Part shown: positions 33,394-39,660 of the stretch, piece by piece
Numbering within the stretch: the stretch's first letter is position 1
How the letters are laid out: each line of letters starts with the position of its first letter
Origin: Promethearchaeota archaeon
GTDB lineage: Archaea; Asgardarchaeota; Lokiarchaeia; Sigyniarchaeales; SOKP01
Length of the DNA: 64,000 nt
Direction of reading: 5' to 3'
Assembly: GCA_019058365.1 (NCBI GenBank)
Contig: JAHPZE010000003.1
Location: forward strand, 160,001 to 224,000
Made by a program: the position numbers and the translations under genes
Notes under the pieces: generated by a model
What the model was told of the DNA's origin: nothing
The model's input: the letters and a program-made list of their open reading frames with translations, nothing else
Databases searched by the model: none

Positions 33394-34284
33394 ATGGTAA
33401 ATGTGATAAAAAAAAGTGTTAGCGGAAAAGAATATTACTATCTTTCTTATTCTTATCGAAAGAATACTAAAGTGAATAATATATCAAAGGCAATTGGGAA
33501 AGAACTTCCGGAATACGAAGAGTTAGGTCATATTAAAGAGGAGTTTTGTTATGAAATATTCCAGAAACTATGGATGCCTATAATAGAAAAAATGACAAAA
33601 AAATATCGAGAAAGATTTAATTCCTTACCAAAACCAATACAAGTAAAAGATTTAAGGACTTTTGGAGTTAGATTTACTCATAATACAAACAGAATTGAAG
33701 GATCAACTCTAACATTAAATGAAGTTGCTTTAATAGTTGATGAACCTAATGTTCCAATCAAGAAACCAACACACGATATAATAGAGGCAAAATCACACAT
33801 GAGTGTTTATGAGGAGATGCTTACAAGTAAAAAAAAAATTGATTGGGATTTGCTTTTAGATTGGCATGAAAAAATTTTTGAATTAACAAAACCAGAAATT
33901 GCAGGAATTATAAGACAATATCCGGTTCAAATAAGTCGGAGTAAATATATTCCTCCAATGGCGGGAACAGAATACCTTTTGGATGATCTCCTTAAATGGT
34001 ATAATGATAATAAAAAAAAGTTACATCCAGTTTTTCTAGCATGTATGATACATTATAGATTTGTTTCAATACATCCTTTTGGAGATGGAAATGGGAGAAT
34101 GTGCAGAATTCTTATGAATTACATCTTATTTAAAAATAAATATCCTATGTTCGATATTGAATATAAAATTAGACAGAGCTACTATAATGCTTTAGAAAAT
34201 GCTAATTTAAAAGAAGATGATATGATCTTTATTGGTTGGTTTTGTAAAAGATATATTAAAGCAAATGAAGTATATTTGAAATAA
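33394..34284 (+). CDS. Fic family protein (AMPylase)
   Basis: Intact HPFGDGNGRMCR; inhibitory-helix-like TNRIEG. Confidence 0.93.
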   Translation: MVNVIKKSVSGKEYYYLSYSYRKNTKVNNISKAIGKELPEYEELGHIKEEFCYEIFQKLWMPIIEKMTKKYRERFNSLPKPIQVKDLRTFGVRFTHNTNRIEGSTLTLNEVALIVDEPNVPIKKPTHDIIEAKSHMSVYEEMLTSKKKIDWDLLLDWHEKIFELTKPEIAGIIRQYPVQISRSKYIPPMAGTEYLLDDLLKWYNDNKKKLHPVFLACMIHYRFVSIHPFGDGNGRMCRILMNYILFKNKYPMFDIEYKIRQSYYNALENANLKEDDMIFIGWFCKRYIKANEVYLK

Positions 34285-34350: not shown

Positions 34351-34454
34351 TGGGAAAGGGGGGCTTCGAACCCCCGACCTCACGGTTATCAGCCGTGCGC
34401 TATACCAGGCTAAGCCATTGAAGAGATGCTTCGAATAAAAGAATCCACTCTCCC
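34351..34454 (-). tRNA. tRNA-Ile(GAT) with a 30-nt non-canonical intron (34418-34447)
   Basis: Anticodon arm CACGG-CT GAT AA-CCGTG, T arm GGGGG TTCGAAG CCCCC, 3' acceptor CTTTCCC-A; 5' acceptor GGGAGAG separated from TGGCTTAGCC by an insert with BHB/BHL-like pairing. Confidence 0.85.
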
Positions 34455-34648
34455 AAGCCGCTTTCCCTTTCAAAGATTAGTACTAAATTCTAAAATACTT
34501 TATAGTATAAAAATTAAAGTAGTTTTTATCATAGTACGATTTGATTGAATAATTTAAATAATATATAACTAAAAAATTTTTTGACCAAAAAAATAATAAA
34601 ATATGCTTATTTTTAATAAATATTAAATCATAGATGTGTTGAATAAAA

Positions 34649-35276: not shown

Positions 35277-36083
35277 TTATAACTTATTTATACTAATTGT
35301 CATTCCACCATCGAGGATTATATTTTGACCCGTAATGTAATCTGCCACCGGTGAAGCTAAGAATAATGCGACATCAGCTACCCATTTAGCTTCACCAATT
35401 TTATTTATTGGTATTTTTACACCTCTGGTTTTTAAAAAATCTCTGATAAGTTTAGGATCATTATTATAAATAGGTGTTAAAAATACTCCTGGCGAAATTG
35501 CATTAACTGTAATATTGTTGGCGCCTAATTCAAGAGCCCATAATCTAGTAAACGCTAATAAGCCAGCTTTACTTGCACTATAAACCCCAAGATATGGATT
35601 AGTCCCATTCGGCGTTCCTGCACAAGAAGTAATGTTAATTATTTTTCCCGCGATTGGTGTAAAATGCTTTTGTCTTCTCATTTGTTTAAAAAAAGCTTTC
35701 GTAACATTCCAAGCTCCTTTTAAATTGACAGCCATGACTTTGTCATAAATTTCCTCTTTTGCTTTTAAAGAAGTATATAATCCACCATCAATTCCGGCAT
35801 TATTTACTAATAAAAAGAGGTTATCGAATTTTTCAAATACACGCTCAACCATTTGTTTTACTTGTCCAGAATCCGAAATATCAGCTTTTACTATAAGAAC
35901 CTCAACATCATATTCTTTACGGATAATATCTCGTGTTTGTTCTAAACCTTCTTTATTAATATCATTTATAACTAAATTTGCTCCTTTTCTAGCAAACGCT
36001 TTTGCCATTTCTCTTCCAAATCCACCACCACCAGCTCCAGTTATTAAAGCGACTTTTCCTTTCAAAAAATCTTCTTCTGACAT
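35277..36083 (-). CDS. Short-chain dehydrogenase/reductase
   Basis: TGAGGGGFG, NNAG, YSASK. Confidence 0.93.
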   Translation of the reverse strand: MSEEDFLKGKVALITGAGGGGFGREMAKAFARKGANLVINDINKEGLEQTRDIIRKEYDVEVLIVKADISDSGQVKQMVERVFEKFDNLFLLVNNAGIDGGLYTSLKAKEEIYDKVMAVNLKGAWNVTKAFFKQMRRQKHFTPIAGKIINITSCAGTPNGTNPYLGVYSASKAGLLAFTRLWALELGANNITVNAISPGVFLTPIYNNDPKLIRDFLKTRGVKIPINKIGEAKWVADVALFLASPVADYITGQNIILDGGMTISINKL

Positions 36084-36106
36084 TTTATTTCACTTTTAAT
36101 TAGATT

Positions 36107-37843
36107 TTATTTTCCAAATAAACCTTTATTTTTTTTATATTGAGCTAATAATCTCATTGGAGGAGGTGTTTCAAAAGCAATACTCACATTAATTACCGCT
36201 GGTTTTTTAGAATCAATAGCTCTTTGTAAAGCAGGTTTTATATCTTCAGGATTTTCTACTTTTTCTCCATAACATCCAAATCCTCTTGCAATTTCTGAAT
36301 AATCAATTGAAGGTAAATCAACATCGCAGTATCTTTTGTTAAAACCTTTTTTCTGATTGCTTTTTATCATTCCCCATGCACAATTATTAGCAATAACAAC
36401 AACTATTGGCAAATTTAATCTTACGGCGGTCTCTAATTCTTGTACATTAAATAGAAAACTTCCATCGCCATTTAAACAAATTACAAGTTTATCTGGTTTT
36501 GCCATTTTAACTCCAATGGCATAGGGAATTCCAACACCTAAATGTCCCATAGAAATTGGGAAAAATGTAGACCTTGGAGGACGAGGTTTTAAGTTAATAA
36601 ACTTATATGAGAATACAACAATATCTCCCCCATCAAGTATTATTTGTGCATCCTCCGGGATATAATCAAATACTTCATAAACAAGTCTTTCCGGTTTCAT
36701 TGGTAATTTCTTATATTCAAGAATTTTTAAATTTGTATTCAATTGATTCTTACAAAGGTCTTGTAAATAAGTATTCCATTCAGACCATTCAGCTATTTTA
36801 TCTTTTGGTAGGGATTTTTCCATTTCTTTTAAAAGTTGTTTAATTACAGCTTTACAGTCTCCAACAATTCCTACTTCAATCGGTCTATTTTTTCCAATTT
36901 CACTAGGATCGATATCAATTTGGATAATTTTTTGATTTTGACTCCACATTGGGGATGCTCCATAAAATATTGAATAATCCCATTTACACCCAAATGATAA
37001 AACTACATCAGATTCCGTAGCAGCTGTCCTATAAGCATTATTTATTAAATAAGAATCTAAAAAATTCTTTTTATCTCTTCCAATTGAACCAATACCATTA
37101 ATAGTAGTGCTTGTTGGTATCATATATATCCCTGATAAAGTTTTTATCTCCTCTGAAGCTTCTGAAGCAATAATTCCCCCACCAGTAACTATAAGAGGTT
37201 TTTTTGCCTCTTTTAAAATTTCAATAGCTTTTTCAATATCTGCTAAAGAGCCGTTAGGTCTACTTAATGCCCTATAATTTTCTGGGTCTAAAACCTTTTT
37301 AAAATCTTCATCAGTAGCCTTTCTAACTAATGCAGTTTCCCTGAATTCTAAATATACCGGACCTTTTCTTCCTGATAAAGCAATTTTCATTGCTTTTTGA
37401 ATCGCATGCGGAATTTCTTCTGGTTCTTCAACTTGAATTTGGGTTTTTGTAATCGGTTTCATTAATGCTATTTGATCAATTCCCCCTTGTAAAATGCCAG
37501 TATCTTCGAACATACGACCTATTTGTGCTCCAATAACAAGCATAGGAATTGAATCTGCATTAGCTGCGGCTATAGCTGGCACAAGATGAGTTACACCGGG
37601 ACCAACAGTTCCAAGGCAAACACCAATTTCTCCTGTAGCTCTCGCCCACGCATCTGCCATATGCCCTCCTGCTTGTTCATGTCTGACCATTACTGTATCT
37701 ATACCTTCTTCTCTGCCCCAACGCTCAATAGCATCATAGATTCTTAATAATTCACCACCAACTATGCCAAATATTTTAGTAACACCTTCCTTTAAAAGAC
37801 ATTTAACAACCAAATCGCCACCATTTAATATTTGATTTGACAT
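36107..37843 (-). CDS. Thiamine pyrophosphate enzyme (acetolactate synthase / 2-hydroxyacyl-CoA lyase-like)
   Basis: RHEQAGGHMAD, GPG, GDGSFLFNVQELET, NNCAWG. Confidence 0.9.
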   Translation of the reverse strand: MSNQILNGGDLVVKCLLKEGVTKIFGIVGGELLRIYDAIERWGREEGIDTVMVRHEQAGGHMADAWARATGEIGVCLGTVGPGVTHLVPAIAAANADSIPMLVIGAQIGRMFEDTGILQGGIDQIALMKPITKTQIQVEEPEEIPHAIQKAMKIALSGRKGPVYLEFRETALVRKATDEDFKKVLDPENYRALSRPNGSLADIEKAIEILKEAKKPLIVTGGGIIASEASEEIKTLSGIYMIPTSTTINGIGSIGRDKKNFLDSYLINNAYRTAATESDVVLSFGCKWDYSIFYGASPMWSQNQKIIQIDIDPSEIGKNRPIEVGIVGDCKAVIKQLLKEMEKSLPKDKIAEWSEWNTYLQDLCKNQLNTNLKILEYKKLPMKPERLVYEVFDYIPEDAQIILDGGDIVVFSYKFINLKPRPPRSTFFPISMGHLGVGIPYAIGVKMAKPDKLVICLNGDGSFLFNVQELETAVRLNLPIVVVIANNCAWGMIKSNQKKGFNKRYCDVDLPSIDYSEIARGFGCYGEKVENPEDIKPALQRAIDSKKPAVINVSIAFETPPPMRLLAQYKKNKGLFGK

Positions 37844-37909
37844 AATTAGACCTATAGAAAATAAAAAATAAAGTTTATTATAAAAAGAAATTCAACAGAT
37901 ATGTATAAA

Positions 37910-38353
37910 TTAAAGAGCAATCAATTCGAGATAATAACCGAAAATTTCCTTAGTATTTAAATAATAAAATTTAACTCTTCCAACGTTACCTGACTGAATT
38001 ACATCTATATTGTATAGATTCTTAAAATGCATAATAAGGGTCTCAGTATCTTTAGTATATACACCTAAGTGATGTAGCCCCACCTTACCTTCTTTAAGAA
38101 ATTCTGAATATAAATGATCCCCAGTGGATTCCAATAATTCAATAATTTCAAACTGTTTACCACTAAAATTTTGCATTATCTTTTTCATTTTAAATTCTAC
38201 TTCATTTCCTCTATAATTTACAGTGCTGGTTTGTTCAACAATATTGATCTTTCCCTTAAAATCTAGTAATGCTTCATAGAATTCTGCCGCTTTTTCAATA
38301 TCTTTGACAAGGATACCAATTTGATCAAAATTTGATAGTTTTAATTCTGTCAT
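37910..38353 (-). CDS. VOC/glyoxalase family protein (methylmalonyl-CoA epimerase-like)
   Basis: DQIGILVKDIEKA, FEIIE, GLHHLG, LELI. Confidence 0.85.
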   Translation of the reverse strand: MTELKLSNFDQIGILVKDIEKAAEFYEALLDFKGKINIVEQTSTVNYRGNEVEFKMKKIMQNFSGKQFEIIELLESTGDHLYSEFLKEGKVGLHHLGVYTKDTETLIMHFKNLYNIDVIQSGNVGRVKFYYLNTKEIFGYYLELIAL

Positions 38354-38370
38354 TCTTAATATACTGAATT

Positions 38371-39660
38371 TTATTTTACTTTTTTTGCAAAGTGTAATTT
38401 ACTAACTGGTTTTTTTAGAGGAAAATCTCCTTTTAAAATCATTGATTTTAACTGTTCTGCTAATTTTATTGCTCCATGTCTATCCGATTGTCTTAAAACA
38501 ATTGGGATGTAATTATCTTCGAAATTAACTCTTTTCATATCTAATTCAAATGCTTCTGGACATAGATGAGTGCAATTTCCGCAATTAAAACAACGAGATC
38601 GATCAATAGCAGAGATCATGCCCTTTTTTATAATAAATGCATCAGTTGGGCACTTATCAATAACTTTACATTCTTCACAATTTTTACACGCAACAGGATT
38701 AAATTTCATCATAAAATTGTTATCCCAGACATCACCATAAGTCATTTCTCCTACTTTTTCACGTCCTACAAGACTTAAAATTGTTAATTTAATAAATTTA
38801 TCTGATTTCACTATATTATTGAATATTTTTTCATTTAGTATAGGAATAGGAAGGGCGATACTACAAATAGGTTCTAATCCATAAGAAGTTTTGAAAGCAC
38901 CCATATACTCTTGCTTCATTCCTTCAAATGGAGCAATAGTCATCATATTAGGCTTTTCGATATAATTACGGGTTCCAGGCCCTATTAGATGTCCAATAGT
39001 TCCATTTACAAGAACAGGTGATCCAACTCCAAATGATTCAAATTCGGGATCATTTTGAAAAGGATTAAGGGCACCACACCCCGAAAAAGTTATCTCTGTT
39101 TTATTAGGAGAAAAAGGTAAACAGGAGAAAATAGTATTAACCTGATCTGTTTCACAGTTAATCATTGCGTTATAATTTTTAATAGCTTGTCTAGTACCTG
39201 CTAATTTAGCAAATTGCATATCTTCTAATTTCATTTGTTTTTCAATAGTCTCACCTTCAGCACTCATAGCCATGATTGTTACTGATTTTCCTTCAACAAT
39301 TTCCCTAAAAAGAGAACCACCACAATAATTATTAATGGTTTTACTTTGAGTAGTGCCATAAATAATAAGATCTACAATTCCTAAATATTCATTAGGGCAT
39401 GGTCCAGGAAAAGCTGGTATTCCGTTTATATCAACTTCGGTAAACTTTCTCAATGTTTTAGGTGGTGAAAGGCGAAATGAGAATATGCCCATAATTCCAC
39501 TCATAAGTCCTTTGGTTGCAGTTGTAACAACATCTACATCTTCAAAATTAACCTTCTTGCCTTCATTAATCCGATCTAACAATTCTTGAACGGTTAATAT
39601 GACTGCCGAACCATCTTCGATCTTTTTTCTGATTTCTGAAAGTTTTCTTTTTTTAACCAA
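38371..39660 (-). CDS. DUF39 / methanogenesis marker 16-like metalloprotein with ferredoxin domain
   Basis: VDVVTTAT, GPCPNE, SGCGALNP, CxxC..C...CP and CFNCGNC..CP, RQSDR. Confidence 0.85.
   Translation of the reverse strand: MVKKRKLSEIRKKIEDGSAVILTVQELLDRINEGKKVNFEDVDVVTTATKGLMSGIMGIFSFRLSPPKTLRKFTEVDINGIPAFPGPCPNEYLGIVDLIIYGTTQSKTINNYCGGSLFREIVEGKSVTIMAMSAEGETIEKQMKLEDMQFAKLAGTRQAIKNYNAMINCETDQVNTIFSCLPFSPNKTEITFSGCGALNPFQNDPEFESFGVGSPVLVNGTIGHLIGPGTRNYIEKPNMMTIAPFEGMKQEYMGAFKTSYGLEPICSIALPIPILNEKIFNNIVKSDKFIKLTILSLVGREKVGEMTYGDVWDNNFMMKFNPVACKNCEECKVIDKCPTDAFIIKKGMISAIDRSRCFNCGNCTHLCPEAFELDMKRVNFEDNYIPIVLRQSDRHGAIKLAEQLKSMILKGDFPLKKPVSKLHFAKKVK

Follow-up and report, generated by a model that had tools for sequence, protein, structure and literature searches.

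The interrupted tRNA-Ile(GAU) locus

The window, by which we mean the whole stretch of 64,000 nucleotides analyzed (C35:160001-224000), belongs to a 100%-complete assembly, G000, of the Promethearchaeia/Lokiarchaeia (4.74 Mb, 29.5% GC). On its minus strand, between a Fic gene on the 3' side and a divergent rpl15e, lies a tRNA-Ile(GAU) gene with an insert in the acceptor stem. We confirmed letter for letter the minus-strand reading given in an earlier note on this DNA. The features are, in the direction of transcription of the tRNA:

34571..34586, minus strand: conserved BRE/TATA-like motif of putative promoter function, upstream edge of the segment that appears to be swapped
34468..34570, minus strand: upstream part of the putative cassette, AT-rich leader or promoter-proximal DNA (from the pairwise alignments G000/G005 and G088/G075 and from motif distances)
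34461..34467, minus strand: decoy acceptor strand GGGAAAG, complementary to tRNA nucleotides 66-72, kept in all 50 distinct 30-nt-intron alleles
34455..34460, minus strand: spacer CGGCTT, a decayed copy of tRNA nucleotides 8-13, variable and 5-7 nt long in relatives
34448..34454, minus strand: exon 1, GGGAGAG, the mature 5' acceptor strand (nucleotides 1-7)
34418..34447, minus strand: 30-nt BHB-type (HBh') intron at position 7/8, with the central strand (-6 to -3) at 34423-34420
34351..34417, minus strand: exon 2, 67 nt, from U8 to the discriminator A73 (Rfam RF00005, 41.9 bits)
34390-34388, minus strand: anticodon GAT, inside exon 2
34358-34352, minus strand: 3' acceptor strand, inside exon 2

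The two exons add up to 74 nt and CCA is not encoded. The Rfam match covers the tRNA body alone (model positions 6-65). ARAGORN run on the window missed the gene, miscalled it as tRNA-Ala when introns were allowed and returned noise at a low threshold. Named records with the same tRNA gene are mostly Promethearchaeota, i.e. Loki-type Asgard archaea. The earlier note had raised the question of an intact Ile-GAU gene elsewhere and we found none in the complete assembly, where the Ile-GAU anticodon arm of this gene is the only one and neither a second 5' piece nor an intron-free Ile-GAU allele is present. A split or permuted tRNA was likewise rejected, since the exons are colinear and the genome holds no second 5' piece. 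A pseudogene or integration scar might be suspected at a gene that tRNA callers miss or miscall and whose 3' end adjoins a Fic gene, but as the genome has no other Ile-GAU gene, and as the exons are almost invariant and the intron covaries across 31 genomes of 5 genera, we give this explanation practically no weight.

The neighborhood of the gene varies. The Fic-domain gene (window 33394-34284) is convergent with the tRNA 3' end and related genes occupy this place in 6 loci, while most relatives have an adenylate kinase gene directly downstream; the Fic gene is possibly a small insertion at the tRNA. On the other side rpl15e is directly upstream only in a subset of relatives (L001, L006, L018-L020 and L081) and most have another small divergent gene there, which indicates that a rearrangement took place here, at the conserved motif upstream. 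The contigs of four genomes (G130, G132, G051 and G142) end exactly at tRNA-Ile(GAU), which is compatible with a population that has mixed alleles or an integrated element. Further along the window, 35277-39660 carries a co-directional cluster whose products look, by sequence appearance, like SDR, ThDP enzyme, VOC and DUF39-ferredoxin proteins.

A 30-nt intron at position 7/8

The position of the intron was determined by comparison with relatives. A first set of 20 tRNA-Ile(GAU) orthologues from the genus contains 16 without the insert, in which GGGAG(A/G)G is joined straight to U8; intron-free relatives read GGGAGAG-UGGCUU. The earlier note had proposed a 30-nt intron at 7/8, a mature 5' end GGGAGAG and the restoration of a 74-nt tRNA by its removal. 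All three points are supported: the predicted 74-nt spliced product is identical to the intron-free genes of the same genus, and exon 1 is the 5' end of most intron-free genus orthologues and is conserved across intron alleles (it is of the GCG type in those with G at 71). The comparison with relatives that the note had advised also gave 50 distinct alleles sharing intron and decoy. In these 50 alleles the first intron base is T in 30, A in 16, G in 2 and C in 2; at its other end the intron has A, G or T. Because the end bases of the intron vary in this way and the flanking exon bases are fixed, the junction is 7/8 despite a TGG repeat in G000.

A survey of the family gave tRNA-Ile(GAU) matches in 99 of 135 genomes, with the insert in 31 genomes of five genera. 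Pattern scans allowing inserts of 20-50 nt added 60 insert loci, every one of them of 30 nt. Overall the intron measures 30 nt in 50 of 52 distinct alleles; lengths of 31 and 32 nt occur once each, both in other genera. Outside the family only a handful of Ile-GAU genes were seen, none of them with the 7/8 intron. Small shares of three public runs, searched as contigs only, contained no join across the intron, a sample that counts neither for nor against splicing. We also considered whether a hidden second copy per genome lies behind the patchy pattern and rejected it, as 96 of the 99 genomes have one match; the two double-match genomes examined were contig-end overlaps and extra short matches stayed at control level. 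We regard a real, functional 7/8 intron in this gene as close to certain.

The earlier note had also offered an alternative, in which the true 5' end is GGGAAAG and the intron is 43 nt long; such an intron would lie somewhere between 7/8 and 14/15. In its favor, the acceptor stem would be perfectly Watson-Crick paired, the 43 nt lie between direct repeats of GGCTT and register 14/15 has a 4-bp GGCU/GGCU helix. It fails on the intron-free orthologues, which carry the inner copy and not the outer one. The outer copy is variable, what would be position 8 differs between alleles (about C in 23, T in 15, A in 8 and G in 4) and the spacer ranges from 5 to 7 nt. When registers 7/8, 12/13, 13/14 and 14/15 were checked by hand, a central helix was found only at 14/15, where G would replace the conserved A14. 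The 43-nt reading is thus very improbable. A variant in which a second intron of 13 nt is removed after the first was rejected by inspection, as it would give G14 and an inner helix of 1 bp.

The splice motif uses the acceptor strand of exon 1

With the 30-nt intron at 7/8, nucleotides 2-5 of exon 1 form one strand of the central BHB helix and nucleotides 6-7 belong to the 5' bulge. The cuts fall after the second base of two 3-nt bulges, with a 4-bp central helix in register. A relaxed bulge-helix-bulge with a 4-bp GGAG/CTTC helix and an inner GGAT/ATCT helix had been read from the single sequence, and the alleles bear it out. The four central pairs (exon 2-5 with intron -3 to -6) are kept in 44, 50, 50 and 50 of the 50 alleles and the inner pairs (intron +2 to +4 with -7 to -9) in 46, 48 and 49. 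The full inner helix runs from +2 to +10 with -7 to -15, and seven of its nine pairs show double-sided changes. In an alignment of 20 alleles 90.8% of the cells were paired and 8 pairs had double-sided change. Shuffled controls, a comparison inflated by the relatedness of the alleles, reached the splice-helix score in 0-1 of 500 cases, and all slid registers scored lower. By inspection and allele pairing 7/8 is the sole fit among registers 7/8 to 10/11; cuts at 8/9 to 10/11 were rejected since a central helix does not form there and the first bases of the intron are variable.

The outer helix that a strict hBHBh' motif has beside the 3' bulge is absent, G1 facing G9, and an outer helix in the precursor would need the spacer and an internal loop. 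The motif is therefore of the relaxed HBh'/BHL type. In addition, exon nucleotides 6-7 can pair with intron -7/-8; the resulting extended helix of 6 bp is a competitor of the strict BHB register. The central helix conflicts with the tRNA fold because exon nucleotides 2-5 are locked in the acceptor stem.

An upstream decoy strand complementary to nucleotides 66-72

The leader of G000 matches tRNA nucleotides 1-13 at 11 of 13 positions and its decoy pairs 7/7 by Watson-Crick pairs with nucleotides 66-72, in agreement with the claim that the leader nearly duplicates nucleotides 1-13 and pairs perfectly with the 3' acceptor CTTTCCC. We searched all alleles for a complement of 66-72 at a spacer of 4-8 nt. 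Among alleles with a 30-nt intron the decoy, 5-7 nt upstream, pairs 7/7 in 43 of 50 and 6/7 in the other 7, against 0 and 1, respectively, of 65 intron-free alleles. The 31-nt-intron allele, L094, pairs 5/7 only. All of the other roughly 33 tRNA genes of G000, many of which have introns at more internal positions, lack such a nearby second complement. Two apparent extra decoys further upstream were set aside, as these loci are cut by contig ends and the hits are most likely indexing artefacts.

The co-occurrence of intron and decoy is not independent proof of function because both are linked in one cassette (see below). The main evidence is the pattern of change inside the decoy. Columns 1, 3 and 7, opposite C, are invariant G. 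At columns 4-6, opposite U, nearly all variation is A against G; the exception is a T that 7 alleles have at one column. Lineages whose acceptor has the pair C2-G71 also have C at column 2 of the decoy (the 3' strand was seen in three alleles and deduced for one), a compensatory change that may be a single event. The 60 columns upstream of the decoy reach a consensus of only 39-84%. Moreover the decoy differs from the inner copy in most alleles and has thus not simply been homogenised with it. Its origin is probably a tandem duplication of nucleotides 1-13, since two loci, L049 and L091, retain a perfect tandem copy. For the spacer, three partners fit about equally well, namely exon 9-12 as an outer helix, the 3' strand of the D-stem and exon 5-8; the MFE fold pairs it with exon 9-12.

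The copy in the leader might instead be a neutral duplication relic that hitchhikes in the cassette, with EndA cutting during transcription, ahead of the synthesis of the 3' strand. Exon 1 and the intron do precede nucleotides 66-72 in the order of transcription, the cassette appears to move as a unit and the perfect copies in L049 and L091 look like such relics. A relic would, however, not be expected to keep its pairing while the adjacent leader and spacer diverge, to change almost exclusively between A and G opposite U, to track the acceptor at column 2 and to differ from the inner copy in most alleles. We consequently hold this explanation to be improbable.

Folding models with and without the leader

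In folding models without the leader, exon 1 is in the acceptor stem with a probability of 0.97 and the mean probability of the central helix is 0.016. With the native leader these values become 0.03 and 0.58, respectively. Replacing the leader by the AT-rich sequence from further upstream gave 0.83 for the acceptor stem and 0.06 for the central helix, and shuffled leaders gave a central helix of 0.20. The native leader raised the central helix over the leaderless state in all 48 alleles folded (48/48). The median cost of the strict HBh' conformer falls from 12.2 kcal/mol without leader to 5.0 with it; the strict BHB register is thus still about 5 kcal/mol uphill when the leader is present. 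After splicing, the decoy still wins in the 2D model in 8 of the 9 alleles tested (0.79-0.98), so that handing the 3' strand back would need tertiary contacts or a protein.

The earlier note had proposed that the leader serves as a placeholder strand. Pairing-compatible conservation, one compensatory change and the folding models support this proposal, and it is likely that the decoy has been selected for pairing with nucleotides 66-72 and acts as such a placeholder. A related possibility is that the decoy pairs with 66-72 but that its main job is to tether the 7-nt exon during ligation or to build a tRNA-like acceptor/T-arm for RNase P/Z, in which case the ends would be trimmed in order and G1 protected until splicing is done. 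The persistence of the decoy-paired form after splicing in the 2D models would suit this, as would the base before the decoy, which is T in 38 of 51 alleles, as it often is before tRNA 5' ends or transcription starts. On the other hand the splice helix hardly forms in the model without the leader, which is enough to explain the conservation, and these roles and the freeing of exon 1 are not mutually exclusive. As the main function of the decoy, we judge tethering or trimming to be a minor contender.

Apparent exchange of the leader and intron as a cassette

On an RpoB tree of 97 genomes the intron state changes at least 22 times. Near-identical pairs differ in it: G000/G005 (0.025), G088/G075 (0.032), and G107/G120 and G104/G113 (0.022). 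The DNA of G000 and G005 is nearly identical up to the conserved TATA-like motif, and in G088/G075 near-identity runs about 20 nt beyond it. In both pairs the sequences align poorly between the motif and U8, where the match resumes. The intron-free close relatives have a shorter, poorly alignable stretch (76 versus 115 nt to G1). Loss or gain of the intron is therefore not a precise deletion, because about 130-150 nt comprising leader, decoy, exon 1 and intron are replaced. The alignments suggest that these four elements are exchanged together, in a recombinational cassette of about 150 nt. The G107 cassette groups with genus g1 (92/81 support) and the neighboring adenylate kinase gene and the RpoB of that genome group with g22, which points, with moderate support, to a transfer across genera. 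The intron state of G104 may reflect mis-binning.

The BRE/TATA-like motif was found upstream of most alleles, with and without intron, and is presumably a promoter element, either of the tRNA or of the divergent gene. TATA-like boxes occur 40-115 nt upstream; in 70% AT DNA TATA-like words are too noisy to place the start. The intron-free g1 alleles L005-L020 share a conserved TTCCC that lies about 10 nt ahead of G1, five bases before GGGAG, and could form a hairpin with the 5' acceptor strand or be a promoter element of the other strand.

Discussion

A functional tRNA-Ile(GAU) with an EndA-type intron at 7/8 whose splicing is assisted by a decoy strand is, on the comparative and folding evidence, the explanation that we consider well founded. 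The machinery for it is encoded in G000, which has two EndA genes, the catalytic alpha subunit aligning through the L1/CSL loop with crenarchaeal enzymes and structures, an RtcB gene and an RNase P RNA. Asgard archaea have an (ab)2 EndA with an L1 loop, and this loop is tied to HBh' cleavage (PMC5829648).

Maturation could proceed as follows. Comparison with relatives shows that the mature 5' strand is the inner GGGAGAG and the intron the 30-nt insert. The transcript would begin upstream of the decoy, which very probably takes nucleotides 66-72; exon 1, thereby freed, would pair with the 3' end of the intron and complete the HBh' motif. As known for these enzyme families, a two-subunit EndA with an L1 loop would then cut after G7 and before U8, and RtcB would ligate. 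It is also possible that the decoy keeps the 7-nt exon attached to the tRNA body after the cut and until ligation. In the most tentative step, the real strand might displace the decoy after ligation by short-range strand exchange, and removal of the 13-nt remnant at G1 by RNase P would make the switch irreversible. We infer both the order, splicing and then RNase P, and the return of the strand with the help of tertiary contacts.

Non-canonical BHB/HBh' introns are known in archaeal tRNA genes, with an extreme case at 3/4 in Thermoproteales (PMC4090602, Yoshihisa 2014, which cites Marck and Grosjean 2003 and Sugahara 2008 for them). The present intron resembles them in its 4-bp central helix, its two 3-nt bulges, its inner helix and its weak or absent outer helix, as well as in its predicted removal by an (ab)2 EndA with L1 loop (PMC5829648). 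It differs in its position, 7/8 not being among those named in the text of PMC4090602, where the list is open-ended. The literature searched, outside which key subscription papers lie, contains no account of a leader strand occupying 66-72 while splicing proceeds; such a helper is new to that literature, and older subscription papers may mention one at 3/4 introns.

Asgard tRNA genes are intron-rich (PMC11291895). The intron described here shares with those of that paper and of a 2026 preprint (bioRxiv 10.64898/2026.10.13.758758) an Asgard host, a non-canonical type missed by callers, repeated gains and a patchy distribution. Unlike here, both focus on Freyr/Jordi/Atabey lineages; the preprint groups a few acceptor-stem/junction inserts as 'other', and neither main text uses the word 'leader'. 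How the introns arrive is left open in the preprint, whereas a swap of leader plus intron is visible here. Split and permuted tRNAs (Nanoarchaeum, Caldivirga, Cyanidioschyzon; PMC4090602, PMC4033280) are similar in that a discarded non-coding leader or trailer sets up the EndA substrate. In contrast, the BHB itself is made from their flanks, in trans or through permutation, and in the colinear gene described here the leader would sequester the competing exon strand.

A leader-driven conformational switch before the final 5' trimming would add a step to archaeal tRNA maturation and would account for an intron in a place where the splice signal has to compete with the most stable helix of the tRNA. 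The swap of the cassette between near-identical genomes bears on how Asgard introns arrive. We lean, with some reserve, towards the broader idea that the decoy is an obligatory, disposable splicing cofactor in cis and that the decoy-exon 1-intron cassette spreads between species and genera; if so, its spread would be one concrete way in which Asgard archaea gain tRNA introns. The locus also provides a small testable substrate of 117 nt with natural plus and minus alleles and a natural compensatory variant, and it makes clear why genes of this kind are missed or miscalled by annotation tools.

Other inserts in tRNA genes

About two-thirds of the roughly 33 tRNA genes of G000 have inserts of about 30 nt or multiples thereof, many at non-canonical positions, and ARAGORN miscalls most of these insert-bearing genes. 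One of them, a tRNA-Thr(UGU) at G000:C43:38970-39070, has an insert of about 30 nt near position 13-15 and no upstream decoy. Another, at G000:C34:25519-25700 (minus strand), is a multiply interrupted tRNA whose anticodon arm is apparently UAU, possibly Ile(UAU). Other introns occur in the same Ile-GAU gene at ten further loci (L055, L084, L099, L101, L103-L105, L109, L110 and L271), where they lie in the D-loop, in the anticodon stem/variable region or in the T-loop, some of them alongside the 7/8 intron.
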